A stretch of 64,000 bases of DNA from Nitrospirota bacterium (GTDB lineage: Bacteria > Nitrospirota > UBA9217), in assembly GCA_023229435.1 (NCBI GenBank), contig JALNZF010000012.1, positions 30,086 through 94,085 on the forward strand, written 5' to 3'. Position 1 is the first letter of the stretch. Each line of letters opens with the position of its first letter. Shown here piece after piece: positions 31,838 through 61,515 of this stretch. The position numbers and the translations under genes are program-made. The notes under the pieces are model-generated. The model was not told the origin of the DNA, ran no database searches, and worked only from the letters and a program-made list of their open reading frames with translations.

Positions 31838-32457
31838 TGTGTCTCCGGAGGAGAACAAGCGAAAGGAAGCGCGAGAAAAGGTAAGAACGACAGCGGCAGT
31901 AAGTAATGCAGGTTGCCCCCATTTGTTCCTTCCAGAGAGAGAAGTTCATCCCCTCCGTCAACCTATAAAGAGCTTTTCACCGCGGCATGTTTTATCGCAA
32001 CTTCTTTAAAGTCCGATCCCAAGAAAAAGAGCAATTAAACCCCGGCTTGTTTTTCCTCCGTGATTTTTGCGCCTTCTGCAGCATGCTCCCGTTATTACTG
32101 ATTGCATAAACAGTTACATGGTGGAATCACCATGCTGAATCGGTCTTATCGCTAAGCATAGATTCTATAACTACGTTTTTAAGTGCCAACATATTGTTAA
32201 ATAATTGTTTTTTGAAAGCAATTAAGTGGCATGCCGGTTGCAATACATAAGAGCAAATACAGAAAAGTCACTTGTGCATCAAGAACCCGGTTATCAAAGA
32301 AAATAGGATTTAAATAAAAAGAAAAGGAGGTGTCGTAACAATCCAAGTAGTAGAAACAGCTGTAGCGAAGTCAGATGAGAACAAAATGCAACAAGAAGTG
32401 GAAAACAGGTTGTTTGGTACAGCTGATAAAGTAATCAGCACATGAAGTCCTCCGAAA

Positions 32458-32519
32458 AAGGTAAACCCATCGTAAGGTGGGGACACAAAGACACGGGTCC
32501 TGATAAGCAGGATGGCCGG
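32458..32519 (+). promoter_or_regulatory. GEMM-I-like (cyclic-dinucleotide) riboswitch candidate in the 5' leader of an OmcS-like gene
   Basis: AAGGUAAACCCAUCGUAAGGUGGGGACACAAAGACACGGG parallels the GEMM-I P1 core GGCAAACC-AUUC-GAAA-GAGUGGGACGCAAAGCC. CCCAUC/GGUGGG forms the stem around a GNRA (GUAA) tetraloop, followed by GGGAC.CAAAG. A second hairpin lies downstream (UCCUG-AUAAG-CAGGA; GGCCGG-UUUG-CCGG), 45-105 nt upstream of the ATG at 32564. Confidence 0.4.
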
Positions 32520-32563
32520 TTTGCCGGAAGAAAAAATTAAAAATTTTTTGGAGGAATACACTA

Positions 32564-33868
32564 ATGAAGATCAAATTTAGTATTATCATGGTCGCAGCAA
32601 TCGCGATCATATGCGGACTCAGCGGAACAAGCTTCGCGTTCCATAGCGGCGGCGTCGCAGAGTGCGAAGGCTGCCATTCGATGCACAACAGCTTCGAGGG
32701 TACGACCAACGTCACCGGCCGCACCTTTGCACAGGGCACGGGCCCCTATCTCTTGAAGGCCAATGACCAGGGCGGCACCTGCCTCAACTGCCACAACGCG
32801 GCTGATACAGTAGCCACCAGCTACCACATCTCCACGAACGGCATCACCGCCTATGACAGCACCGTACCGGTCGAAATGACCCCGGGCGGCGACTTCGCCT
32901 GGCTCAAGAAGACCATGAGCTTCATTGTTCGCGGCAACACCAATACCCAGGTCGGCGATCACAAGGGCCACAGCATCGTAGCCGCTGACTATGGCTATGC
33001 TGCAGACCCCGACCTTACCGTAGCGCCGGGCGGCACTTATCCGGCCGGCAACCTGGCCTGCTCCTCCTGCCATGATCCTCATGGCCGCTATCGCCGCGAC
33101 GCAACGGGCGCCTATGCCACCACGGGTCTCCCGATCTTCAACAGCGGCTCCTACACCAGCAGCAAAGACCCGATCGCGGGCGTTGCCGCAGTCGGCGCAT
33201 ACCGTATCCTCGGCGGCAATGGCTATCTGCCGAAGTCCCTTGCCCTCTCCGGGACACCGGCCTTCACGGTCGATCCGATGGATGTCGTTGTTGCCTCGAC
33301 CTACAACCGTTCAGAAGCAACCAGCCAGACCGGTATCGCCTATGGTAAGAACGTAGCTGAGTGGTGCGCAAACTGCCACACCGGCATGCTCCAGGGCACC
33401 TATACCTCCGGCATGGCAGGCCTTCGTCACCCGGCCGGCAACGGCGCCAAGCTGACCGCGGACATCGTGGCCAACTACAACGCCTATGTCTCCTCGGGCA
33501 TCATGACCAACACAGGGAATGCGTTCAGCACCCTGGCGCCGTTTGCAACAGACACCAATGATCGTACAGTCCTCAAGTCAGCGGCTACAAACACCACGAC
33601 CAGAGTTGCAACCACGGGCGACAACGTAACCTGCCTCTCCTGTCACCGCGCACATGCGACGGCCTTCGAGAGCATGCTCCGTTTCGCCTACAGCAACGAG
33701 TTCATGACCGCAGCAGACTCCACCAACGCCGCGATCTACGACTCAGTCAACGGCAAGGGCACTGGCTACAGCGTAGCGCAGCAGACAAATGCATACTATG
33801 GCCGTCCGGCCACAGCATTCGGGCCGAACGCCCGCGTGTTCTGCAACAAGTGCCACGCGAAAGACTAA
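32564..33868 (+). CDS. OmcS-like hexaheme c-type cytochrome (nanowire-type subunit family)
   Basis: 434 aa. GGAGGAA RBS. Signal peptide ending ...TSFA|FHSGGVAECEGCHSMHNS. Six CXXCH motifs (CEGCH, CLNCH, CSSCH, CANCH, CLSCH, CNKCH). Family blocks GGDFAWLKKT, GHSIVAADYGY, PGGTYPAGNLACSSCHDPHGRYRR, AYRILGG, WCANCH, CLSCHRAHATAFESM and C-terminal CNKCHAKD match my recollection of G. sulfurreducens OmcS. Confidence 0.8.
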   Translation: MKIKFSIIMVAAIAIICGLSGTSFAFHSGGVAECEGCHSMHNSFEGTTNVTGRTFAQGTGPYLLKANDQGGTCLNCHNAADTVATSYHISTNGITAYDSTVPVEMTPGGDFAWLKKTMSFIVRGNTNTQVGDHKGHSIVAADYGYAADPDLTVAPGGTYPAGNLACSSCHDPHGRYRRDATGAYATTGLPIFNSGSYTSSKDPIAGVAAVGAYRILGGNGYLPKSLALSGTPAFTVDPMDVVVASTYNRSEATSQTGIAYGKNVAEWCANCHTGMLQGTYTSGMAGLRHPAGNGAKLTADIVANYNAYVSSGIMTNTGNAFSTLAPFATDTNDRTVLKSAATNTTTRVATTGDNVTCLSCHRAHATAFESMLRFAYSNEFMTAADSTNAAIYDSVNGKGTGYSVAQQTNAYYGRPATAFGPNARVFCNKCHAKD

Positions 33869-34388: not shown

Positions 34389-35684
34389 ATGAAAATTCTC
34401 AAGATTATCTTGGCGAGTTTGCTGCCTATGGCCTTTGTTATCGCAATGGAAGGCGGCTCAGCCGCTTTTCACGCGGGAGGCGTCGGTCCGTGCGAAGGTT
34501 GTCACAGTATGCATAACTCCGTCGACGGCATGCAGATCAATCCGCTTGCGCCCGCCTATCTCCTGAGACAGCAGGACCCCAGCTCCACCTGCCTGTCCTG
34601 CCACGAGCACGCGGGAGATCCCGGCCCCACGACGTACCATGTCAGCACGCCGGTCAATGAACTCCTGCCGGGCATACCCCCGAAGCAGCTCACTCCGGCT
34701 GGAGATTTCGGATGGCTTAATAAGACATTCTCGTGGGTTTCAAACCCAACTTCAGCCACGGCCTATAGCTATGGAGAGCGGCACGGGCACAATATCGTGG
34801 CAGCTGATTATATGTACGATGCCGACAGCACAAATACCACTGCCCCGGGCGGCACCTATCCCGCGAATAGCCTTGGCTGCATCAGCTGCCATGATCCCCA
34901 TGGAAAATACCGGCGGAATCTGGACGGCTCAATAACGACGACAGGGCGTCCTATCGCCGATTCAGGCTCCTTCGCTTCCAGCCGCGATCCCGACAGCGGC
35001 ATGTCAGTCGGTGTTTACCGGATGCTGGGCGGACAGAACTATCGGCCCAAGTCACTGATCGGCGGTCTGGCCTTTGTGAACGACCCGCCCGCCGCCGTGG
35101 CGCCGGACCAGCCCAACCGGTCGGAGGCAGCAACGCAGACCCGCGTTGCTTATGGGGCCGGGATGTCGGAGTGGTGCATAAACTGCCACCCCAACATGCA
35201 AGGCGGAGGAATGACGGGCCACCACATCGCGGGCTCCACGGCAAAGCTCGGCGCCGTGAAGGCGGACAACTACGCCAAATATGTCAAGACCGGCGATCTC
35301 TCGGGATCGTGGGCAACTTCCTATCTTTCGCTCGTTCCCTTCGAAGAGGGAACAACGGACTATTCAACCCTCAAGGCCCATGCAAAGACCGATGATTCGG
35401 TGCTCGTCGGTCCCAACGGAACGACCTCCCAGGTGATGTGTCTTACCTGCCACCGGGCGCACGCATCAGGGTGGGACCACATGACGAAGTGGAACACCGG
35501 GACCGACTACATCGTTTATAACGGATATTATTCTCAGGAGGGACAAGCGTATCAGCCCTACGGGCAGGGACGAACGGAAGCCGAAGCAACGCGGCCGTAT
35601 TATGACAAACCCGCGGGAAAATTCGCCCTGAACCAGGACGCCCTCTGCAATAAATGCCATAACGGAAACTACAGGGGCATGTGA
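34389..35684 (+). CDS. OmcS-like hexaheme c-type cytochrome (tandem paralog)
   Basis: 431 aa. Signal peptide ...GSAA|FHAGGVGPCEGCHSMHNS. Six CXXCH (CEGCH, CLSCH, CISCH, CINCH, CLTCH, CNKCH). Same family blocks: AGDFGWLNKT, GHNIVAADYMY, CISCHDPHGKYRR, VYRMLGG, WCINCH, CLTCHRAHASGWDHM, CNKCHNG. Confidence 0.8.
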   Translation: MKILKIILASLLPMAFVIAMEGGSAAFHAGGVGPCEGCHSMHNSVDGMQINPLAPAYLLRQQDPSSTCLSCHEHAGDPGPTTYHVSTPVNELLPGIPPKQLTPAGDFGWLNKTFSWVSNPTSATAYSYGERHGHNIVAADYMYDADSTNTTAPGGTYPANSLGCISCHDPHGKYRRNLDGSITTTGRPIADSGSFASSRDPDSGMSVGVYRMLGGQNYRPKSLIGGLAFVNDPPAAVAPDQPNRSEAATQTRVAYGAGMSEWCINCHPNMQGGGMTGHHIAGSTAKLGAVKADNYAKYVKTGDLSGSWATSYLSLVPFEEGTTDYSTLKAHAKTDDSVLVGPNGTTSQVMCLTCHRAHASGWDHMTKWNTGTDYIVYNGYYSQEGQAYQPYGQGRTEAEATRPYYDKPAGKFALNQDALCNKCHNGNYRGM

Positions 35685-51444: not shown

Positions 51445-53268
51445 ATGATACGTCTGTTTCGCAAAACCCACATTATACCTGCGCTGATCTTCCTCGTCGG
51501 GTTCCTGGCGTACGCGAACACGTTCACGGTCCCCTTTCAGTTCGATGACGACGCCTATATCGTCAACAACCCGATCATCAGGACATTCCACTATTTTTTT
51601 GCCCCATCGGAAGTAACCGGCCTTACGGAGCGCACCCCGACGGCCGTCCCCCCCGCATTACGCTATGCCTTCATGACCCGCATGCTGGGGTATTTCACGT
51701 TTGCCGTCAACTATCACCTGCACGGCCTGGACGTGATCGGCTATCACGCGGTGAATCTGGCGATCCACCTTCTGAACGGTATGTTCGTCTTCCTGATTCT
51801 CAGGACCACCCTGAAAAGAGTCCGCTTCACGGATGCAGCCGCCGAGAGGATTAAGCACGAAGATTTCTTCGCGGGCAGCATCGCGCTGCTCTTCGTGAGC
51901 CACCCGATCCAGACCCAGGCCGTAACCTATATTTCACAGCGCTTTGCGTCGCTGGCGGCCTTCTTCTACCTTCTGTCGTTCCTTCTGTACCTCCGCTCCT
52001 GCCTGTCTTCGGCCGGACGATGGCGAACGGCGGCCTATGGCGGCGCCCTCGTTTCCGCCGTCGCCGCAATGCTGACCAAGGAGTTCACTATTACCCTGCC
52101 GCTCATGCTGGCGCTGTACGATATAACCTTCCTTCCGGGAAGCATGCGAGACCGGATCAGGAGACTTGCGCCCTTTGCAGCCACCCTCGCGATCATCCCG
52201 GCGCTGGTGTTCATCCAGCAGGGCACGCTGCATGACCTGGACAGTACCATGCGGACCATTACCGCGGCTGATTCGAGCAACATCCCCCGGGGGCACTATC
52301 TCCTGACCCAGTTCCGCGTCGTGGCGCTCTACCTCAGGCTGCTCTTCATTCCTCTGGGGCAGAACATCGACCACGACGTCCCGGTTTATACCTCGCTCTT
52401 TGCACCCGCAGTTCTATTTTCGTTCCTGCTGCTGCTTCTCCTCATTGCCGCCGCGCTGTGGCTCTACGTTGTCTCGAAAAGGAAGCCCGGGCATCCGGAG
52501 CTCATGCTGGCGGCCTTCGGGATACTCTGGTTCTTCATCACCCTGTCGGTTGAATCAAGCATCATCCCCCTGGGCGAGCTGGCGGCCGAATACCGGCTTT
52601 ATCTTCCATCGATCGGCATCAGCATGGCTGTTGTCTCGCTCGGTCATTACGCAGCAAAAATGTTTTCGCTGCGACCTTCCTTCCTGTACGGCGCGTGCGC
52701 GCTGGTCGTCATTGCGTTGTCAACTGCATCCTCGCTGAGAAACACGGTTTGGGCCAGCGAAACCGCGCTCTGGGAAGACGCGGCCCGAAAAAGTCCCGCG
52801 AGGGTGCGGCCTCATCAGAACCTCGGAACGTATTACGGAACGCAGGGACGCCTGGAGGATGCAAAACGAGAGCTGCTGGCCGCCCTGGCGCTGGCGCCGG
52901 CGGATTTTGAACTGCACAACAACCTTGGAGTGATATATAAGCGAATGGGATTATTCGACGAAGCCGAGAGAGAATACACGATTGTGCTCAAGCTTTCTCC
53001 CGGCGACGTCATGGCCCGCTACAACCTGGGGAATGTTTACCTGGCTCAAGGGAAAGTACCGGAGGCCATCCGGGAATACGAGTTGACGGTGAAACTCATT
53101 CCAGACTACGACGAGGCCCATAACAACCTCGGCATTGCCTATCAGAAGAGCGGGCAGTTCGACGCGGCGATCCGCGAATTCAACCGGGCGCTGCAGCTCA
53201 ACCCTCAAAATGAACATGTCCGCAGGAACCTCGAAGCTGCCGTCAGAAAATTGTCCCTGCCGCACTGA
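51445..53268 (+). CDS. TMTC-like TPR membrane protein (paralog); in-frame TGA followed by further TPR-coding sequence
   Basis: 607 aa. Motifs: FQFDDDAYIVNNP, HGLDVIGYHAVNLAIH, HPIQTQAVTYISQR, AAEYRLYLPSIG, then TPRs. After the TGA at 53266-53268 the same frame stays open for 65 codons encoding a clean TPR (HYNLGVVLAAQEKLHDAEKYFQEALRINPNYSDALSALE) up to a TGA at 53462. Confidence 0.75.
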   Translation: MIRLFRKTHIIPALIFLVGFLAYANTFTVPFQFDDDAYIVNNPIIRTFHYFFAPSEVTGLTERTPTAVPPALRYAFMTRMLGYFTFAVNYHLHGLDVIGYHAVNLAIHLLNGMFVFLILRTTLKRVRFTDAAAERIKHEDFFAGSIALLFVSHPIQTQAVTYISQRFASLAAFFYLLSFLLYLRSCLSSAGRWRTAAYGGALVSAVAAMLTKEFTITLPLMLALYDITFLPGSMRDRIRRLAPFAATLAIIPALVFIQQGTLHDLDSTMRTITAADSSNIPRGHYLLTQFRVVALYLRLLFIPLGQNIDHDVPVYTSLFAPAVLFSFLLLLLLIAAALWLYVVSKRKPGHPELMLAAFGILWFFITLSVESSIIPLGELAAEYRLYLPSIGISMAVVSLGHYAAKMFSLRPSFLYGACALVVIALSTASSLRNTVWASETALWEDAARKSPARVRPHQNLGTYYGTQGRLEDAKRELLAALALAPADFELHNNLGVIYKRMGLFDEAEREYTIVLKLSPGDVMARYNLGNVYLAQGKVPEAIREYELTVKLIPDYDEAHNNLGIAYQKSGQFDAAIREFNRALQLNPQNEHVRRNLEAAVRKLSLPH

Positions 53269-54631: not shown

Positions 54632-55110
54632 GAGCTTCTCCTTAATTATGAAGATAGAATCCAACTGCTCCTACCTTATGGTTATCGTGAGATCGCCTTC
54701 GCGCTGTCCCTGGAGCCACGCGTGTAACTCCAGAAACGATATCCCTCTTTAAGCCTGCTCTGCGGTCAGCAGAGCGAATGATCACCGACGGTTTTATTGG
54801 GGATCGAAAACGAACTGCAGAGCGGACAAGCGCATCTTTGTCCAGACGCCCGATGAAAGTGACTTTGTCTGCTATCGCGAAAAGAGGAGGCCATACAAGC
54901 CATCCAGACAATCGCGAGCTGATCAGGCATGAGGACGCACGACGCCTACCCGATTGCGGCATGAGAATCAGATACAAAACATCATGGTTTTATAATGAAT
55001 GAACCGGCGTAAAAACATTAGCAATTTATTTATATCAGCAATTGGCCATTTTGTAAAGATAAAAAACGGTTATATTTGAACAGCTCAAAGCACATAAAAC
55101 GATGAACACA

Positions 55111-56253
55111 TCAGTCTCTGATATGACACTTATTGCAGAGACCTCTCTGGGAACCGGCAAACCGGGTGACCGGCCTGTCATAGTATGCCTTCTGTGTCTC
55201 AGCCTCGGTGCGCCCCTGTGCATTCCTTGCAGGCGAACCATTATTGTTCCCGGGGTAAACACTATTTTGCACGATAAACTCCGATGCCATATTCCATCGT
55301 GCCAGATGGTCCCAGGCGGAAGCGTGCGCCCGGTGACAGGTGAGACACATCACATTGGAACCAAAACCAGGCCCCATGGTGTAAGTGCCGTTGTTTTTTG
55401 CATGCTGCTCGAGGACCATCCGGTCGTCAGTCCCTTCCTCAAACGGAACCAGCGCGGTATAGGAAGCATCGCCCTTCCCATTGATGTCACCTGATTTCAC
55501 ATAGGCGTTGTAATTGGAAATGATCTCGTTCGTACACTGGGCGCCATTGCAGACAGGGTGTCCGTAAGCTCCGGTACAACCGTTCATGTGGCAATTTGAA
55601 CACCATTCAGACATCCCCCTGCCATAGGCGACCCTTGTGTCTGTTACCGCCTCAGACCTGTTGTAGTCACGTGGTGCAACAGCAACCGGCGCAGCAACAG
55701 TGAAAGGCATCCCCGGCGCTGACCTCGTTGTATAGCCGATCCCGCCCAGAAGACGATAGGCGCTGGTGGCAATGTTGCCGTGCGGATCATGGCAGCTGAT
55801 ACAGGAAAGCGCGCTGCTGGGATATGTTCCGCCCGGTGTTGTGCTATGCCTGCTGTCCGCTTGATACCCATAGTCTAGCGCAACAATATTATGGCCATGC
55901 CGTTCGCCCGGGCTGTCCTGTGTGGACCCCGATTCTTTCCAGGAATAGCTCTTTTTTAAATAGCCGAAGTCTCCGCCGGGAGTCATCTGTGAGGGCGGCA
56001 TACCCGCTCCTAAATCGTGCCCATTGGACGCACTGTAATGGCCAATGGGTCTCCGGGTGCCCATCGGCGCTTGATGGCATCGAAGACAGACGGAACCTGC
56101 ATCGGACCCGCGCAACGCGCCCTTCTCGTCCTCATGACATTCCCTGCACTCTCCGGCGCCTCCTGCATGAAAGGCTTCTCCTGTGCGGGGGATACAAAGT
56201 GCAAGGAAGAATGCCATGAGAAAAACAACATATGACCTGAAACCAGGCTCCAT
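55111..56253 (-). CDS. OmcS-like hexaheme c-type cytochrome, divergent subtype
   Basis: ORF open to 56295. The ATG at 56253 (MEPGFRSYVVFLMAFFLALCIPRTGEA|FHAGGAGECRECHEDEKG) has an AAGGAG RBS. Six CXXCH (CRECH, CLRCH, CISCH, CSNCH, CLTCH, CNKCH). Family blocks GGDFGYLKKSYSWK, GHNIVALDYGY, CISCHDPHGN, AYRLLGG, WCSNCH, CLTCHRAHASAWDHL, CNKCHIRD. Confidence 0.75.
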   Translation of the reverse strand: MEPGFRSYVVFLMAFFLALCIPRTGEAFHAGGAGECRECHEDEKGALRGSDAGSVCLRCHQAPMGTRRPIGHYSASNGHDLGAGMPPSQMTPGGDFGYLKKSYSWKESGSTQDSPGERHGHNIVALDYGYQADSRHSTTPGGTYPSSALSCISCHDPHGNIATSAYRLLGGIGYTTRSAPGMPFTVAAPVAVAPRDYNRSEAVTDTRVAYGRGMSEWCSNCHMNGCTGAYGHPVCNGAQCTNEIISNYNAYVKSGDINGKGDASYTALVPFEEGTDDRMVLEQHAKNNGTYTMGPGFGSNVMCLTCHRAHASAWDHLARWNMASEFIVQNSVYPGNNNGSPARNAQGRTEAETQKAYYDRPVTRFAGSQRGLCNKCHIRD

Positions 56254-56370
56254 GCTGCTCCTTAAAAAACCGCGACAGAACAATGTGATACACATTCACT
56301 GTTCAATCGTTCTTGTCCTGTTGACCCTGTTGCACCCAGGTAAGTATGGTAAAGCATCATCATTCGTCCA

Positions 56371-56452
56371 ATGATATCAAGTTACCCGATCCAAAGCAAG
56401 CCGCATTTTTTATTAATGATCCTTGCACTATTGGAAGACTTTTGTTAAAGTA
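56371..56452. promoter_or_regulatory. conserved divergent promoter block (copy 1), duplicated at 60216..60305
   Basis: Plus-strand sigma70-like promoter: -35 TTGCAC (56423-56428), exact 17-nt spacer, -10 TAAAGT (56446-56451). Minus-strand promoter: -35 TTGCTT (complement of 56394-56399), 17-nt spacer, -10 TATCAT (complement of 56371-56376). The whole block is conserved in the second copy. Confidence 0.35.
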
Positions 56453-56720
56453 TTTGTAACTACACAGGTTGTCAGGTTCAAGATTCAGTATTCAGGATGA
56501 ACAAGCAACACAGGAACGGCTCGACCATTCAACATGCTCATGGTGGCGAGCAACGTCGAACCACTGAACTCGGCGAAGTCTTTGTCTTTGAACCTATTAT
56601 CCATCACGTTGAGATGCGTTCAGCAAGGTCAATTATTCAAATCGTTTGATATTTGCGGCTTTCCAACCTTAGAACTGTTACCCTGGAACTTTGAACCTGA
56701 TCTGAACAAGGAGGAGCGCT

Positions 56721-57860
56721 ATGGGACTTACCACCCGGAGAAAGTACCGTTTATTTCTCTTTGTTAACTCGTTGGTGCTCGTATTGCCTGGCGCCGCGAT
56801 CAACGGAAGGGACGCGTTCCGGTCGTTTCCCGCGCACCTCGGCAAAGGCTATCACAACGTACGGGCCCTCGTGCAGGACGTCGGGATAGCGCTGTTCAGG
56901 AGGATTACGATGCTCGATGTCGTTTTTCCGCTCTTTATCGTTCTGGCAATCCTCTTCTCTGCCGACGCGGCGGATGCCTGGAACAGGGCTACAGGAGCAC
57001 AGTACGGCAGGGTCGTCATCAGGAACTACTCCAGGAATGCCGGACTTGCCCCTGTGGTATTCGACCACTGGTTCCACCGGTCCAGATTCACCTGCAGGCT
57101 TTGTCATGTCGATATCGGTTTTGCCATGGAGGCGGGTGGTACGGAAATTACAGCAGCAATGAACAAGCAGGGGCTCTACTGCGGCGCCTGCCATGACGGC
57201 AAAAGGACCTTTGACGGTAAAAAGATCTTCGCGGCGTGTTCTGAGGGCGTTTCAAAGGAAGAGTCTTTGCGATGCGACCGGTGTCATTCGCGAGGCAAGA
57301 AAGTTGCGAGGGAATATGATTTTACCGCCTTTAGAGAAAAAATGCCGAAGACCGTCCTTGGAAACGGGATCAACTGGGAGGAGGCCGAAGCAAAAGGACT
57401 CATTAAGCCCGTTGATTTCCTCGAAGGAGTGTCGGTGCAGCGACCATCCTTGAAGACGCAAAAGGACTTTTCGATAGAAGTGAAATCCTCATGGATGGAC
57501 AAGGTGCTCTTTTCGCATAAGAAGCACGCTGTCTGGAACGGATGCGAGGTCTGCCACCCGGAGATCTTTCCCAGCGTGAAGAAGGGCGCAACGAAGTATT
57601 CCATGTTTGAGATAGTCAGCGGTCAATACTGCGGCGTATGTCATGACAAGGTCGCATTTCCCTTACAGGATTGTCAACGCTGCCACACACAACAGGTCGA
57701 GATGGGGGGCGGCGCTCCCCGATTGAGAAGGGATGAACGGAAAACCACCGCTTCCCCCGGGACTTTTTTTAAGATGGTATCTGAAAGAGAGATGGATTGT
57801 GACAGCGCGTATAAACAGTTTGTTTTTTTGGTAACCCTTCCTGATGTTCCAACTCGCTAG
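56721..57860 (+). CDS. membrane-anchored hexaheme c-type cytochrome (c3/c7-like heme-binding motifs)
   Basis: AAGGAGG RBS. N-terminal ~85 aa has two hydrophobic helices (RLFLFVNSLVLVLPGAAI; MLDVVFPLFIVLAILFSA). Then VVFDHWFHRSRFTCRLCH, a c3/c7-type F.H..H......C..CH motif, and five more CXXCH (CGACH, CDRCH, CEVCH, CGVCH, CQRCH). Confidence 0.75.
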   Translation: MGLTTRRKYRLFLFVNSLVLVLPGAAINGRDAFRSFPAHLGKGYHNVRALVQDVGIALFRRITMLDVVFPLFIVLAILFSADAADAWNRATGAQYGRVVIRNYSRNAGLAPVVFDHWFHRSRFTCRLCHVDIGFAMEAGGTEITAAMNKQGLYCGACHDGKRTFDGKKIFAACSEGVSKEESLRCDRCHSRGKKVAREYDFTAFREKMPKTVLGNGINWEEAEAKGLIKPVDFLEGVSVQRPSLKTQKDFSIEVKSSWMDKVLFSHKKHAVWNGCEVCHPEIFPSVKKGATKYSMFEIVSGQYCGVCHDKVAFPLQDCQRCHTQQVEMGGGAPRLRRDERKTTASPGTFFKMVSEREMDCDSAYKQFVFLVTLPDVPTR

Positions 57861-57929
57861 GTCCAGACGATAATCCCCGCGGCAAAGCGATGGGGCCATC
57901 GGTCACGATTTTGTTACCGGAGATATCCG

Positions 57930-58718
57930 ATGCATAAAACAATAATATCGACAATTTTGTACGTAACGCTCGTCGTCGCAGTTGTTGCGGCTGACGACAA
58001 GCAATGCAAGTCTTCGGGTGATGTTGAACAGTACTGGAAGTCTCATCAGCAGGATAAGGCATTCGAGTGCCTTAATAACCTGATACTGGCGGACCCGGCG
58101 GACCCTAAGCTGCATTTGCTTAAGGGCAGCTATTGCCTGAGTCAGGGCAACCTGTCCTGCGCAAAAGAACAATTCAATATCAAGTCAGTAAGGAGCAAAT
58201 TTGCTGTTGAAATAGCTGATCTGTACAAAAAGGAGGCCGACTATTTATACCACGAAGCCGCTTCCCTTAATCCGGCCATTCGCGTCGAGATCGTCAAAAG
58301 AGCATTCCAGGACAATAAACAGGCCCTTGGCCTGTTCCACCTGGATGAGGCCAGGAAATGGGCAAAAAGGCCGGGTTTTGAAGTAGCGGCCGATGAACAT
58401 AAGCAATTCGCCCGGAAATATCTCGGTGACGACGAGGTGGAAAGGGAATTGCCGGAAGTTATCATCCTGGCACCTCGGAAAAGGGCTTATGAGTTTAAGT
58501 TGGCAAAAGGCGAACAGACGAGCTCGTGGATAGCATGGGATGATAAGATAACCAGCCATATCCATTTTTACGAAGTCGATAATGATAAATTCGAAATACA
58601 CTATAAAAACGGAGATTTAGTAAGAGTATGGGCGGGAGAGAAGGTCCCCAAAAAACCGTACGATCAGTTCAAGATAGTTGCTATTGACGATACGATGGTA
58701 TTGATCGTGGTTGATTAA
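57930..58718 (+). CDS. hypothetical secreted protein
   Basis: 262 aa. GGAGA RBS. N-terminal hydrophobic signal (ISTILYVTLVVAVVAA). No recognisable catalytic motifs. Possible helical-repeat N-terminus. Confidence 0.5.
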   Translation: MHKTIISTILYVTLVVAVVAADDKQCKSSGDVEQYWKSHQQDKAFECLNNLILADPADPKLHLLKGSYCLSQGNLSCAKEQFNIKSVRSKFAVEIADLYKKEADYLYHEAASLNPAIRVEIVKRAFQDNKQALGLFHLDEARKWAKRPGFEVAADEHKQFARKYLGDDEVERELPEVIILAPRKRAYEFKLAKGEQTSSWIAWDDKITSHIHFYEVDNDKFEIHYKNGDLVRVWAGEKVPKKPYDQFKIVAIDDTMVLIVVD

Positions 58719-58954
58719 AGACCGTAAATGACAGAGGAAGCTGATGCTGTTCCCCTCGTCAACAGCACCGTTCACCGTTCCCGGAAAGATAACGTCGAAA
58801 ATCCATGATGAAAAACAGCAGGTGGACACGTTGAAGGAACGGCTAGATGAGAGATCTGGTTCTCGGGGGATTCGGCGCGTGAGAAGTTGCAGAAGTAGGG
58901 GTTGAAGCAGGCAGGCCCGTCAACAATATCCGCTCATGGTTCCGGGAGGGCACC

Positions 58955-60097
58955 TCAGTCTCGCAGGTGACACTTGTTGCAAAGACCCCGCTGGAAGCCG
59001 GAAAACAGGCTGGCCGGTCTGTCATAGTAGGCCTGCCGTGTCTCGGCCTCGGTGCGCCCCTGAGCATTTCTCTGAGGCGAATCATTATTGATTCCGGGGT
59101 AAACACCCTTAAAGACAATGAACTCCGATGCCATATTCCAGCGTGCCATATGGTCCCAGGCAGAGGCATGCGCTCTATGACAGGTGAGACACATCACATT
59201 GGACCCATGAACGGGACCCATGATAGAAGTGCCGTCGTTTTTTGCATGCTGTTCGAGGATCGATATGTCGTCTGTCCCTTCTTCGAAGGGAACGAGCGAA
59301 GTATAGGAAGCATCTCTTTTCCCGTTGATGTCGCCTGACTTCACATAGGCGTTGTAATTGGAAATGATCTCATTCGAGCACCGCGCACCACTGCAAACAG
59401 GATGTCCATACGCTCCTGTACAACCCTTCGTGTGGCAGTTCGAGCACCATTCAGACATCCCCCTGCCATATGCCACTCTCGTGTCTGAAACGGACTCGGA
59501 CCGGTTGTAGTCGTGGGGTGCAACAACAACTGGCGCATCAATAGTGAAGACCACCTCGGGCACCGAACGTGTTTTATAACCGGCCCCGCCCAGCATGCGA
59601 TATACGTTGTTCGCAATTTTACCGTGCGGATCATGACAGCTGATACAGGAAAGTTTGCTGTTGGGATACACTTCACCCGGCGTGCTCAACGATCTGCTGT
59701 CTGCGACATACCCATAGTCGTCCGCGGTAATGTTATGGCCGTGCCGTTCGCCAGGGCTGCTCTCTGTCGCTCCTAACGCTTTCCAGGAGTAGGCCTTCTT
59801 TAAATAGGCGAAATCTCCACCGGGAGTCAGTTGTGAGGGCGGAAAACCCGCCATCAGATCAGTTTCATCGGTCGCGATATAATGGCCACTGGGTCCCCGG
59901 GTGCCCCGCGGCGCTTGATGACAACGAAGGCAGGTGGAGCTTGCGTCGGACCCTCGTAACGCGCCCTTATTATCTTCATGACATTCCCTGCACTCCGCAG
60001 CGCCTCCGGAATGAAAGGCTTCCGCCGCGCGGCCCTGACAAAGAGCAAGGAAGAATACCATGAGGAAAGCACCATATGGCCTGAAGCCATGCTCCAT
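58955..60097 (-). CDS. OmcS-like hexaheme c-type cytochrome, divergent subtype (duplicate)
   Basis: ORF open to 60217. The ATG at 60097 (MEHGFRPYGAFLMVFFLALCQGRAAEA|FHSGGAAECRECHEDNKG) is preceded by TAAGGAGCAGT, the same RBS context as 55111..56253. Six CXXCH. Blocks GGDFAYLKKAYSWK, GHNITADDYGY, CISCHDPHGK, VYRMLGG, WCSNCH, CLTCHRAHASAWDHM, CNKCHLRD. Confidence 0.75.
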   Translation of the reverse strand: MEHGFRPYGAFLMVFFLALCQGRAAEAFHSGGAAECRECHEDNKGALRGSDASSTCLRCHQAPRGTRGPSGHYIATDETDLMAGFPPSQLTPGGDFAYLKKAYSWKALGATESSPGERHGHNITADDYGYVADSRSLSTPGEVYPNSKLSCISCHDPHGKIANNVYRMLGGAGYKTRSVPEVVFTIDAPVVVAPHDYNRSESVSDTRVAYGRGMSEWCSNCHTKGCTGAYGHPVCSGARCSNEIISNYNAYVKSGDINGKRDASYTSLVPFEEGTDDISILEQHAKNDGTSIMGPVHGSNVMCLTCHRAHASAWDHMARWNMASEFIVFKGVYPGINNDSPQRNAQGRTEAETRQAYYDRPASLFSGFQRGLCNKCHLRD

Positions 60098-60215
60098 ACT
60101 GCTCCTTAACCGTTGCAAGAGAACGATGTCATGCTCATTCTCCGTTCGTTCATCCTGGTTCCATTGACCATGATGAACACAGGTGAGTGCCGTAATCATC
60201 ATGATCAGTACTCTC

Positions 60216-60305
60216 ATGATAACAAGTTACCCGATCCAAAGCAAGCCGCATTTTTTTCTTTTCTCTTGAATGACTCTTGCACAATTGGAAGACTTTTGTT
60301 AAAGT
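60216..60305. promoter_or_regulatory. conserved divergent promoter block (copy 2)
   Basis: Same elements as copy 1: plus-strand -35 TTGCAC (60277-60282), 17-nt spacer, -10 TAAAGT (60300-60305). Minus-strand -35 TTGCTT (complement of 60239-60244) and -10 TATCAT (complement of 60216-60221). Confidence 0.35.
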
Positions 60306-60350
60306 ACTCCTTGATAAGAACCGGAGCGATTCTAAAAAAGGAGGAGTGCC

Positions 60351-60923
60351 ATGGGACTTACCACCCGGAGAAATTATCGCTTGTTTCTGTATGTCAACTC
60401 GTTGGCGATCATTCTGCTCGGCGCTGTGATCACCGGATGGGGCGTGTTCTTGTCGTTCCCTGCGGATCTCGGTCAAGGCTATCACAACGTACAGGCCCTG
60501 GTGCGGGAGATCGGGAACGTACTGTTCTGGAGGGTCACGATACTCTATGCCGTCACCTCTTTCCTCATCGTTCTGGCGATGGTGGCGCTTCATCTGGTAT
60601 ACTCCCACCGCATTGCAGGTCCGGCTTACCGTATCAGTCTGGAAGCAGCCCGGATCTCCCAGGGCGATCTGACCGGCAATATCAAGTTTCGCCGGAAGGA
60701 CAACCTTACGGACATGGCGGACCTGCTGAATGATCTGGCGTCGCAATACCGGGGCCGCATCAATGCTGTCAGGGACTCCCTTGCGATTCTTGACGAACAG
60801 TCAAAAAAAGTTTCCGATCTCATCCAACAGGGCAAGGACGGGCTTGCGCTCAAACAAATTGCAGGCGACCTTTCAAAGAGCGTAAAAAAGATCGAGAGCA
60901 GCCTCGCGGAGATGAGAATATAA
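60351..60923 (+). CDS. small membrane protein: 2-TM module + HAMP domain + coiled coil (no output domain)
   Basis: AAGGAGGAG RBS. The N-terminal 85 aa (MGLTTRRNYRLFLYVNSLAIILLGAVI...GQGYHNVQALVREIG...) is paralogous to the N-terminus of cytochrome 56721..57860. Then a HAMP-like block (IAGPAYRISLEAARISQGDLTGNIKFRRKDNLTDMADLLNDLASQY) and ~60 aa of coiled coil. Confidence 0.65.
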   Translation: MGLTTRRNYRLFLYVNSLAIILLGAVITGWGVFLSFPADLGQGYHNVQALVREIGNVLFWRVTILYAVTSFLIVLAMVALHLVYSHRIAGPAYRISLEAARISQGDLTGNIKFRRKDNLTDMADLLNDLASQYRGRINAVRDSLAILDEQSKKVSDLIQQGKDGLALKQIAGDLSKSVKKIESSLAEMRI

Positions 60924-60933
60924 GGAGCCAGTC

Positions 60934-61515
60934 ATGCTGTTTGATAACAGAAGAATATACTTTATTAATAAAGATTTTCAGTCGCGTTTCATTCTGAGGT
61001 TTGTTGCCGTTGCAACCATATGGGCCGCGGCCACGATCATGCTGTTTGCCTACCTGGCGGGGAAAAGGCTGGAGGCAATACGCTATTCATCGCACATCGA
61101 CATTAAAACGATGAGCGAACTGCTGCTGCCGGTTACCATCGGCGTTCACGCAATCTCGTTTCTGGTGTTCGCCGGCATCCTGGCCTTTACCATCAATTTG
61201 CTCTGGAAAAGGCTTTCCCCGCCGCTGTATTCCATAAAAAAAGACATCGTGAGGATTGCCGGCGGTGATCTTGCGAGCGAGGTCAGTCTCAGCAAGGACG
61301 AAGAGTTTCAACGCCTGGCCACGGACCTGGATAATATGCGGAGAGGAATGCGGGAAAAGATCGTCCGGCTCAAGGAACAGCAGGCAATGCTGTCTTCCGC
61401 GGCCGACGAGCTCGTCAGATCAACCCTTGGCGGGAATCCGTCCTTGTCTTCCGCGGCGACGCTCCAGGCCGCCGTTGAACGCATGAAGCGGGATGTCCAG
61501 ATTTTCCACTATTGA
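60934..61515 (+). CDS. small membrane protein: 2-TM + HAMP + coiled coil
   Basis: AAGGAG RBS. Two TM helices. HAMP-like block (PPLYSIKKDIVRIAGGDLASEVSLSKDEEFQRLATDLDNMRRGM). Then a helical tail. Confidence 0.65.
   Translation: MLFDNRRIYFINKDFQSRFILRFVAVATIWAAATIMLFAYLAGKRLEAIRYSSHIDIKTMSELLLPVTIGVHAISFLVFAGILAFTINLLWKRLSPPLYSIKKDIVRIAGGDLASEVSLSKDEEFQRLATDLDNMRRGMREKIVRLKEQQAMLSSAADELVRSTLGGNPSLSSAATLQAAVERMKRDVQIFHY

Follow-up and report, generated by a model that had tools for sequence, protein, structure and literature searches.

The analysed window, a 64,000-nucleotide (nt) stretch of contig JALNZF010000012.1 from a metagenome-assembled genome of the Nitrospirota (GCA_023229435.1; all coordinates refer to this window), carries two copies of a cassette built around an OmcS-like cytochrome gene. 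In one copy, the 5′ end of the divergently oriented neighboring gene is fused in frame to a c7-type hexaheme cytochrome gene, and in the other it belongs to a small membrane protein with a HAMP-like segment (HAMP1). The genes are arranged in the order OmcS-A, fused c7 cytochrome, a gene for a 262-amino-acid protein, OmcS-B, HAMP1, HAMP2, and a deacetylase gene. Comparison of the two regions by blastn located the limits of their similarity and showed it to be alignable at the nucleotide level. Positions 55107–56452 align with 58951–60306 (78.3% identity over 1358 columns, E = 0) and positions 56701–56950 with 60331–60580 (77.2% over 250 nt without gaps, E = 6e-53); a repeat search recovered both pairs, spaced 3844 and 3630 nt apart. 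Between the aligned pieces lie 248 nt in copy A (56453–56700) and 24 nt in copy B. The similarity begins 4 nt past the stop codons of the minus-strand OmcS-like genes and ends at codon 77/78 of the plus-strand genes, within the second transmembrane helix (TM2). These alignments bear out the first-pass annotation, which had proposed a segmental duplication of an OmcS-like gene, its intergenic control region, and the 5′ end of the neighboring gene. The ungapped match rules out a merely compositional similarity of the N-terminal modules; the shared module is shorter than the roughly 85 codons first proposed and comprises 77 codons with 77% nucleotide and 61% amino acid (aa) identity (56721–56951 versus 60351–60581).

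The OmcS-like genes are encoded on the minus strand at 55111–56253 (copy A; ATG at 56253, protein start MEPGF) and 58955–60097 (copy B; ATG at 60097, protein start MEHGF). Both products have 380 aa, the length at which their relatives are also called, and the common ribosome-binding context noticed earlier is present, as TTAAGGAGCAG(C/T)ATG precedes both starts. Each copy contains six CXXCH motifs, at residues 36, 56, 151, 218, 303, and 373, and a phmmer search against the Protein Data Bank (PDB) aligned query residues 46–380 with residues 37–407 of OmcS (6EF8; E = 1.7e-87). The copies share 76.6% aa identity; their synonymous divergence (dS) of 0.73 and ratio of nonsynonymous to synonymous divergence (dN/dS) of 0.21 indicate that both are old and both are under purifying selection. 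In a neighbor-joining tree, the OmcS-like sequences formed an A-type clade of genes beside the fused cytochrome, which includes copy A, and a B-type clade of genes beside HAMP1, in which copy B groups with those of loci L001, L142, and L144 (L numbers designate sampled loci). The copies resemble OmcS, the hexaheme nanowire cytochrome of Geobacter sulfurreducens (GSU2504; 6EF8/6NEF), in their near full-length match, the six CXXCH motifs, and a mature N-terminus of the form FH.GG..EC..CH, but their host is a metagenome-assembled member of the Nitrospirota. The second His of the OmcS motif CHTMH, presumably the ligand of the heme in the next subunit, aligns with an acidic residue in the window copies (CHEDEKG and CHEDNKG). 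If that His is the inter-subunit ligand, polymerization of the window copies would need another one; 17 His in total were counted by hand in the OmcS-like protein of the window. Inter-subunit heme ligation exists in such filaments (PMC9473688).

The chimeric cytochrome gene

The gene that starts at 56721 on the plus strand, with a product of 379 aa, has a 5′ part that is homologous at the nucleotide level to a nearby gene and ends abruptly, and a 3′ part that stems from an unrelated family. Its ATG is preceded by a Shine-Dalgarno sequence, AAGGAGGAG (56708–56716, plus strand), which lies within the duplicated segment 56701–56950 and is aligned with the ribosome-binding site of copy B. The HAMP1-derived leader (56721–56951, plus strand) comprises codons 1–77 and encodes, in this order, a positively charged N-terminal tail, an eroded first transmembrane helix (TM1), a loop, the residues FRR, and a TM2-derived hydrophobic core. 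The fusion junction, CTGGCAAT (56946–56953, plus strand), coincides with an 8-nt microhomology, CTGGCGAT, present in both parental types. The codons at this point read ATC GTT CTG GCG ATG GTG in HAMP1, ATC GTT CTG GC(A/G) ATC CTC in the fused genes, and GTT GCT CTG GCG ATC ACC in an unfused c7 gene (L065), and a codon comparison of the three gene types places the join within the hydrophobic core of the signal peptide. The following ILFSADAADA (56952–56981, plus strand) is homologous to the c-region of unfused relatives (...SAVAADA, followed by WNR), and according to the A-x-A rule signal peptidase I would probably cut after ADA and before W88.

The mature cytochrome (56982–57722, plus strand) consists of two c7-type triheme domains with six CXXCH motifs in all, in line with the six-heme c3/c7-like domain initially read from the sequence. 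Both Pfam PF14522 (88.4 bits against a cut-off of 24.8, E = 2.8e-25) and TIGR04257 (109.3 bits against a cut-off of 40, E = 7.6e-32) match it in two stretches, which places it among the c7 cytochromes, and it also matches the PDB entry 3OV0 (GSU1996; E = 1.2e-25). Since the Cys and His residues of the heme motifs are invariant in an alignment of 21 sequences and the mature part has a dN/dS of 0.19–0.20 (12 loci), the cytochrome part is clearly functional. In the window only, loss of the stop codon (CGA TAA in relatives, CGA TTG here) has added a C-terminal extension of 45 codons (57723–57860, plus strand); all homologs end in ...GAPR. The protein thus resembles c7 cytochromes of the PpcA family, including GSU1996 (3OV0) and the proteins described by TIGR04257 (“nanowire_3heme”), in its two triheme domains, but differs from them by a presequence of 87 residues, 77 of which come from an unrelated membrane protein. 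By comparison, the leaders of more distant c7 homologs have 20–25 residues.

HAMP1 (60351–60923, plus strand; module at 60351–60581) is a 190-aa protein with two transmembrane helices, a HAMP-like segment, and a coiled coil. HAMP2 (60934–61515, plus strand), a distant 193-aa paralog of the same architecture, lies immediately behind it and adjoins HAMP1 in 23 of 26 loci (L001–L026); the other three contigs stop before the HAMP2 position. The HAMP1 family contains about 100 clusters, nearly all of about 190 aa, and its alignment is conserved over the whole length, with Y84, S85, H86, R87, G90, and P91 invariant and a conserved Pro in the motif SHRIAGP. A minus-strand OmcS-like gene divergent from a HAMP1–HAMP2 pair recurs in the Nitrospirota, Geobacterales, and Desulfuromonadales (58 genome loci). 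Examples of this cassette, an OmcS-like gene divergent from two small HAMP-like genes with two transmembrane helices each, lie at about 8300–11300 in L004, L006, L008–L010, and L013–L015. In the Nitrospirota and Desulfuromonadota, members of the HAMP1 family usually have a divergent OmcS-like neighbor.

The initial description of HAMP1 as a HAMP domain with a coiled coil holds for its predicted fold and less so for its profile match. The AlphaFold 2 (AF2) model, with a predicted local distance difference test score (pLDDT) of 83, shows helices at residues 6–34, 44–103, 120–159, and 164–189, so that TM2 runs into a helix-connector-helix arrangement (44–103 and 120–159, with a gap at 104–119) and then a coiled coil, but the match to Pfam PF00672 stays below the gathering score (18 bits against a cut-off of 25, E = 0.0037) and a precomputed PF00672 match exists for only 6 of 104 listed HAMP1 homologs. 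Weak matches connect HAMP1 with the TM2-HAMP regions of MtrB, WalK, and chemoreceptors, and HAMP2, through NCBIfam, with those of chemoreceptors. A Foldseek search of the HAMP1 model against the PDB gave only generic helical matches (E ≥ 0.5), and the family profile found only marginal chemoreceptor, HAMP, and coiled-coil matches among PDB sequences. HAMP1 thus resembles HAMP receptors with two transmembrane helices and a short periplasmic loop, but has only 190 aa, lacks an output domain, and scores below the Pfam threshold for HAMP. The source annotation “methyl-accepting chemotaxis protein” finds no support, as neither Pfam nor NCBIfam gave a signaling domain of that class in this 190-aa protein.

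The first-pass annotation had left it open which of the two plus-strand genes is a chimera, or whether the module is a reusable membrane-anchoring cassette. It is the cytochrome gene, because the HAMP1 architecture is conserved across phyla and unfused c7 genes have ordinary signal peptides: the more distant homologs are proteins of 260–270 aa with such peptides ending in ...AADA before WNR, and the module is confined to the closest c7 relatives (70–91% identity). Fifteen loci have the fusion, and their modules form a single clade with long branches beside the HAMP1 modules of the close clade, so that the event is not private to this genome. The cassette idea was not upheld, since an exhaustive HMMER search with the 77-aa module recovered members of the 190-aa family, fragments, one fragment of a fused cytochrome, and spurious matches to repeat proteins, but no other architecture. 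Taken together, the conservation of the HAMP1 family, the signal peptides of unfused c7 proteins, the single module clade, and the search result indicate that the module moved once, from HAMP1 to the cytochrome. As a separate observation, unfused c7 homologs are preceded by a small conserved open reading frame (ORF) that ends in ...KVYLKRLQMCRDLF..K and whose stop codon lies a few bases before the c7 start (L063, L064, L065, L070, L072, L075–L078, and L003 12500–12790), with another c7 gene further upstream.

The dS of 0.51 between the module copies, the split of the OmcS genes into two clades, and the occurrence of the fusion in 15 loci with different later rearrangements all indicate an old event. 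The duplication took place before the sampled fused loci diverged, and gene order has changed many times afterwards: OmcS-B was lost in L002, L139, L140, L141, L145, and L146, OmcS-A in L142 and L144, and the HAMP pair in L060–L062 and L147, and L090 has another order. No remnant of a c7 gene or of the 262-aa gene was found beyond the left end of copy A. The join may be either the junction of a tandem duplication of about 3.6–3.8 kb or the product of a later deletion within a larger duplication, and the gene arrangements in relatives are compatible with both. In two further loci, L004 (8481–11172) and L090 (4587–7145), the OmcS gene is closest to copy A (83% aa identity), HAMP1 and HAMP2 are only 67–70% identical, and the module groups outside the close clade, a pattern that resembles a recombinant mosaic.

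Leader decay and membrane topology

The leader of the fused genes has evolved under weaker constraint than the same codons of HAMP1 (dN/dS 0.44–1.03 versus 0.06–0.39). The ratios are 0.76 versus 0.14 for the N-terminal tail, 0.51 versus 0.22 for TM1, 0.44 versus 0.19 for the loop, and 1.03 versus 0.39 for the TM2-derived core. TM1 has lost its hydrophobicity: the best 19-residue Hessa sum in the window is +3.95 kcal/mol for the chimera and −1.16 kcal/mol for HAMP1, and the medians are +3.47 kcal/mol in 12 fused sequences and −0.78 kcal/mol in 31 HAMP1 sequences (Mann-Whitney p = 4e-6). Arg, Lys, Asp, or Pro substitutions have hit TM1 independently across lineages, and TM1, sometimes together with the loop, has been deleted in frame in at least five (L146, L147/L062, P0017, P0018, and P0022). 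The loop has a net charge of +3 in the fused proteins (window and median) against 0 in HAMP1 (window and close HAMP1 median). A W-to-R change before the hydrophobic segment (FWR to FRR) is common to the fused copies, and the Arg codon varies by lineage among AGG, CGA, CGG, CGT, and CGC, which indicates that the Arg is constrained at the protein level.

Despite this decay, the leader frame has remained open. Up to W88 no stop codon interrupts it in any of the 15 loci, whereas frames 2 and 3 contain 36 and 26 stops, and its lengths of 261, 258, 252, 246, 240, 171, and 126 nt are all multiples of three. Random substitution at the observed divergence would keep the frame open in only 10–25% of single lineages. 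The open frame in every fused locus thus argues that the leader is translated, and most likely it acts as a long, decaying Sec leader of which only the positive stretch, the hydrophobic core, and the A-x-A site would be required. The core and the ADA site before W are homologous to the signal peptides of unfused relatives, but about 60 extra residues stand in front of them.

This pattern also bears on the earlier conclusion that the two junctions impose opposite topologies on the same module. HAMP1 must have a cytoplasmic N-terminus, a short periplasmic loop, and a cytoplasmic C-terminus. As the cytochrome domain is functional and a c-type cytochrome must be exported, the TM2-derived segment of the chimera must have its N-terminus inside and its C-terminus outside. 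The opposition thus stands for this segment, but the module as a whole has changed in the cytochrome copies, where TM1 has decayed or been deleted and the loop carries positive charge; this change removes the paradox.

Several points weigh against a decaying Sec leader that stems from an old duplication. The topology case combines a crude, position-independent hydrophobicity sum with charge counts, and the comparisons across loci are phylogenetically non-independent. One fused locus, L143, retains an apparently intact TM1 (−0.04 kcal/mol), and an n-region of about 60 residues is unusually long by the standards of Sec signal peptides. L144 (ATT), L142 (ATC), and L060 (ACG) have another codon in place of the original ATG, and their ORF reaches an upstream ATG instead; the Shine-Dalgarno sequence decays in several fused loci; both findings indicate a plastic start site. 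The AF2 model of the chimera is unusable (pLDDT 38.7). Among the sampled loci, both OmcS copies occur in the window genome only, and the one other public record that contains both is 100% identical over 10,650 nt and not independent. Finally, the window contains a perfect internal AGGAGG-N6-ATG (56898–56912, plus strand), a possible alternative start at codon 64 from which the protein may be made in part or entirely.

That last point leads to the most serious alternative, which nevertheless appears unlikely: the cytochrome would be made mainly from the internal ATG at 56910 with a short conventional signal peptide, MLDVVFPLFIVLAILFSADAADA followed by W, and the 63 codons upstream would be a HAMP1 relic that is either untranslated or translated to no purpose. 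In the window and in L139, two AGG Arg codons form a perfect Shine-Dalgarno sequence at perfect spacing, and an ATG at codon 64 is present in 5 of 12 fused loci, including L143 with its intact TM1; the decay of the original start signals described above would also fit. The remaining 7 of the 12 loci have ATA or another codon there, however, and HAMP1 of the window has ATA as well. The two Arg residues just upstream have been kept through synonymous changes and hence are translated, none of the 15 loci has a break in the upstream frame and every indel preserves it, and the peptide starting at M64 has an n-region (MLD) without positive charge. Internal initiation may thus contribute, notably where TM1 is intact as in L143, but cannot be the general solution.

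Retention of the leader for a function of its own is a still weaker candidate and seems quite improbable. The leader could be an anchor with two transmembrane helices, an element of dual topology, or a peptide akin to HAMP1 that associates with HAMP1/HAMP2 within the membrane or, once cleaved off, stays there as a small peptide and modulates them; if such pairing occurred, it would couple cytochrome export or release to the state of these two sensor-like proteins. The frame has been kept over an old radiation, the loop and TM1 still have dN/dS values below 1 (0.44–0.51), and the loop motif LGEGYHNV..LV is recognizable in many fused copies. A membrane hairpin would, however, place the heme domain in the cytoplasm, where no c-type attachment takes place, and this domain is under purifying selection. 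Moreover, TM1 and in some lineages the loop have been deleted repeatedly, and the module occurs on no other architecture.

Little speaks for the view that the contig is an assembly chimera of strains carrying only OmcS-A and only OmcS-B, a scenario in which the fused gene itself would still be real. It would account for the single OmcS copy in each of the other sampled loci and for the lack of an independent second two-copy record. Against it, A-type and B-type genes are old paralogs, so that an ancestor carried both; two assemblies (contigs of 94,548 and 93,627 nt) give the same sequence; and at only 78% identity the copies are too divergent for repeat collapse. That the chimeric gene is a pseudogene, a dead by-product of the duplication, is scarcely credible, as the lost stop codon with its 45 added residues and the highly variable N-terminus are set against purifying selection on the mature part, invariant heme-motif Cys and His, and retention of the gene in 15 loci despite many rearrangements.

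The intergenic region and neighboring features

The intergenic block common to both copies, already noticed in the sequence, lies at 56375–56452 in copy A and 60220–60306 in copy B (84% identity). In copy B it includes TTGCAC (60277–60282) and TAAAGT (60300–60305) on the plus strand and ends about 45 nt before the ATG at 60351, and a similar distance of about 45 nt to the module ATG is found in most loci. Block identity is 87–97% in most close relatives and 77–84% in three more distant loci; the block is more conserved than synonymous sites, and its core, CTTTTGTTAA.GTA, is invariant across 13 loci except for one base in one locus. Where the OmcS gene has been lost (L002 and L144), the block remains with the plus-strand gene.

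The divergent sigma-70-like promoters proposed for this block receive a mixed assessment. By eye, weak consensus matches were recognized for a putative extended −10 promoter on the plus strand (TTGCAC at 56423–56428 and TGT-TAAAGT at 56443–56451, N14 spacer) and another on the minus strand (TTGCTT, reverse complement of 56394–56399, and TGA-TATCAT, reverse complement of 56371–56379, N14 spacer). A sigma-70 consensus scan of the region, however, called no site in the block, and its 8 sites compare with 5.6 ± 2.4 expected from shuffled sequences; 5 terminator-like sites were found against a shuffled expectation of 6.3 ± 2.5. The block may function as a pair of back-to-back promoters. A sigma-54 reading of TGGAAG-N-TTGT was discarded, as the spacing is wrong by eye.

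In front of the chimeric gene, a lineage-specific insertion of 248 nt (56453–56700, plus strand) separates the block from the ribosome-binding site; it is present only in the window, L139, and L140 and is missing from copy B. A Rfam search gave no intergenic match, either in the whole window at the gathering score or in 56250–56760 at E ≤ 1, and the fold energy of the insertion is not better than that of shuffled sequences (z = +0.89). The consensus scan placed one promoter-like site inside it (56609–56636).

Downstream of the chimeric gene, 57930–58718 (plus strand) encodes the 262-aa protein, which follows the fused c7 gene in 14 loci and matches no Pfam family. In L139, the closest relative, a Y1-type transposase gene (PF01797; 12034–13026) is located a short way beyond the deacetylase gene on its downstream side; for the window, locus L148 shows restriction-modification-like genes in the place of this transposase. 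Elsewhere in the window, a c-di-GMP-I-GGC riboswitch (RF03167, 69 bits; 32451–32529, plus strand) directly precedes an OmcS-like paralog (32564–33868, plus strand) that is 36–37% identical to copies A and B, and a second paralog follows at 34389–35684 (plus strand). At least 12 paralogs of a membrane and TPR protein of about 600 aa are encoded at 1–30554 and 51445–53268, with 24–27% identity to the one at 51445–53268.

Proposed origin and implications

The following sequence of events is considered rather likely as a whole. The ancestral cassette, in a lineage of the Nitrospirota, would have consisted of a minus-strand OmcS-like gene, a bidirectional control region, and the plus-strand HAMP1–HAMP2 pair. 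A local duplication would then have copied everything from the OmcS-like gene through the control region and ribosome-binding site to codon 77 of HAMP1, and the duplicate would have been joined in frame to a c7-type hexaheme gene at the 8-nt microhomology in the signal-peptide core. In this way, the cytochrome and the 262-aa gene would have come under a control region used divergently with the OmcS-like gene. The TM2-derived segment and the c-region of the cytochrome, with its ADA site before W, would together form a Sec signal peptide oriented with the N-terminus inside and the C-terminus outside, the reverse of HAMP1. This inversion would have been enabled by the exchange of the positive flank on the HAMP side for an acidic, cleavable one, by the W-to-R change before the segment, by the positive charge of the former loop, and by a TM1 that no longer inserts or has been deleted, and the approximately 60 residues ahead of the core would be translated yet decaying. 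The mature product would be a hexaheme cytochrome, soluble in the periplasm, that plausibly carries electrons to the OmcS-like protein. The sequence comparisons show the duplication and its age, the junction, the direction in which the module was transferred, the relaxed selection, the kept frame, and the shifts in hydrophobicity and charge; export by the Sec route, the site of cleavage, the choice of start codon, the activity of the promoters, and the role in physiology are our inferences.

Chimeric genes are known to arise by segmental or tandem duplication with microhomology joins, and flanking charges can re-orient transmembrane helices according to the positive-inside rule. The chimeric cytochrome gene resembles known cases in its in-frame join at an 8-nt microhomology and in the capture of a ribosome-binding site and of a promoter, the function of the latter being predicted, and the changes in charge run in the direction expected for inversion. 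It differs from known chimeric genes by its natural series of 15 descendant loci with TM1 intact, eroded, or deleted. The component families (OmcS-like, c7-type, and HAMP-like with two transmembrane helices) are known, and the way in which the chimera arose is common in molecular evolution. Less ordinary is that a transmembrane helix of a protein with two such helices was apparently reused in inverted orientation as the core of a cleavable signal peptide, with stages of the remodeling kept in relatives; these natural variants form a rare series and make rules of membrane topology, such as the effects of positive-inside charges and of the loss of an upstream helix, testable.

In Geobacter, periplasmic triheme c7 cytochromes are reported to pass electrons to OmcS filaments (PMC10954620), and in light of such a transfer the placement of a c7 gene under an OmcS-linked control region makes sense. 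In uncultured Nitrospirota, the event has linked a c7-type cytochrome of the periplasm with a control region that belongs to an OmcS-like gene. For work on extracellular electron transfer, the more useful lead may be the conserved association, in several phyla, of OmcS-like genes with a pair of small HAMP-like proteins.

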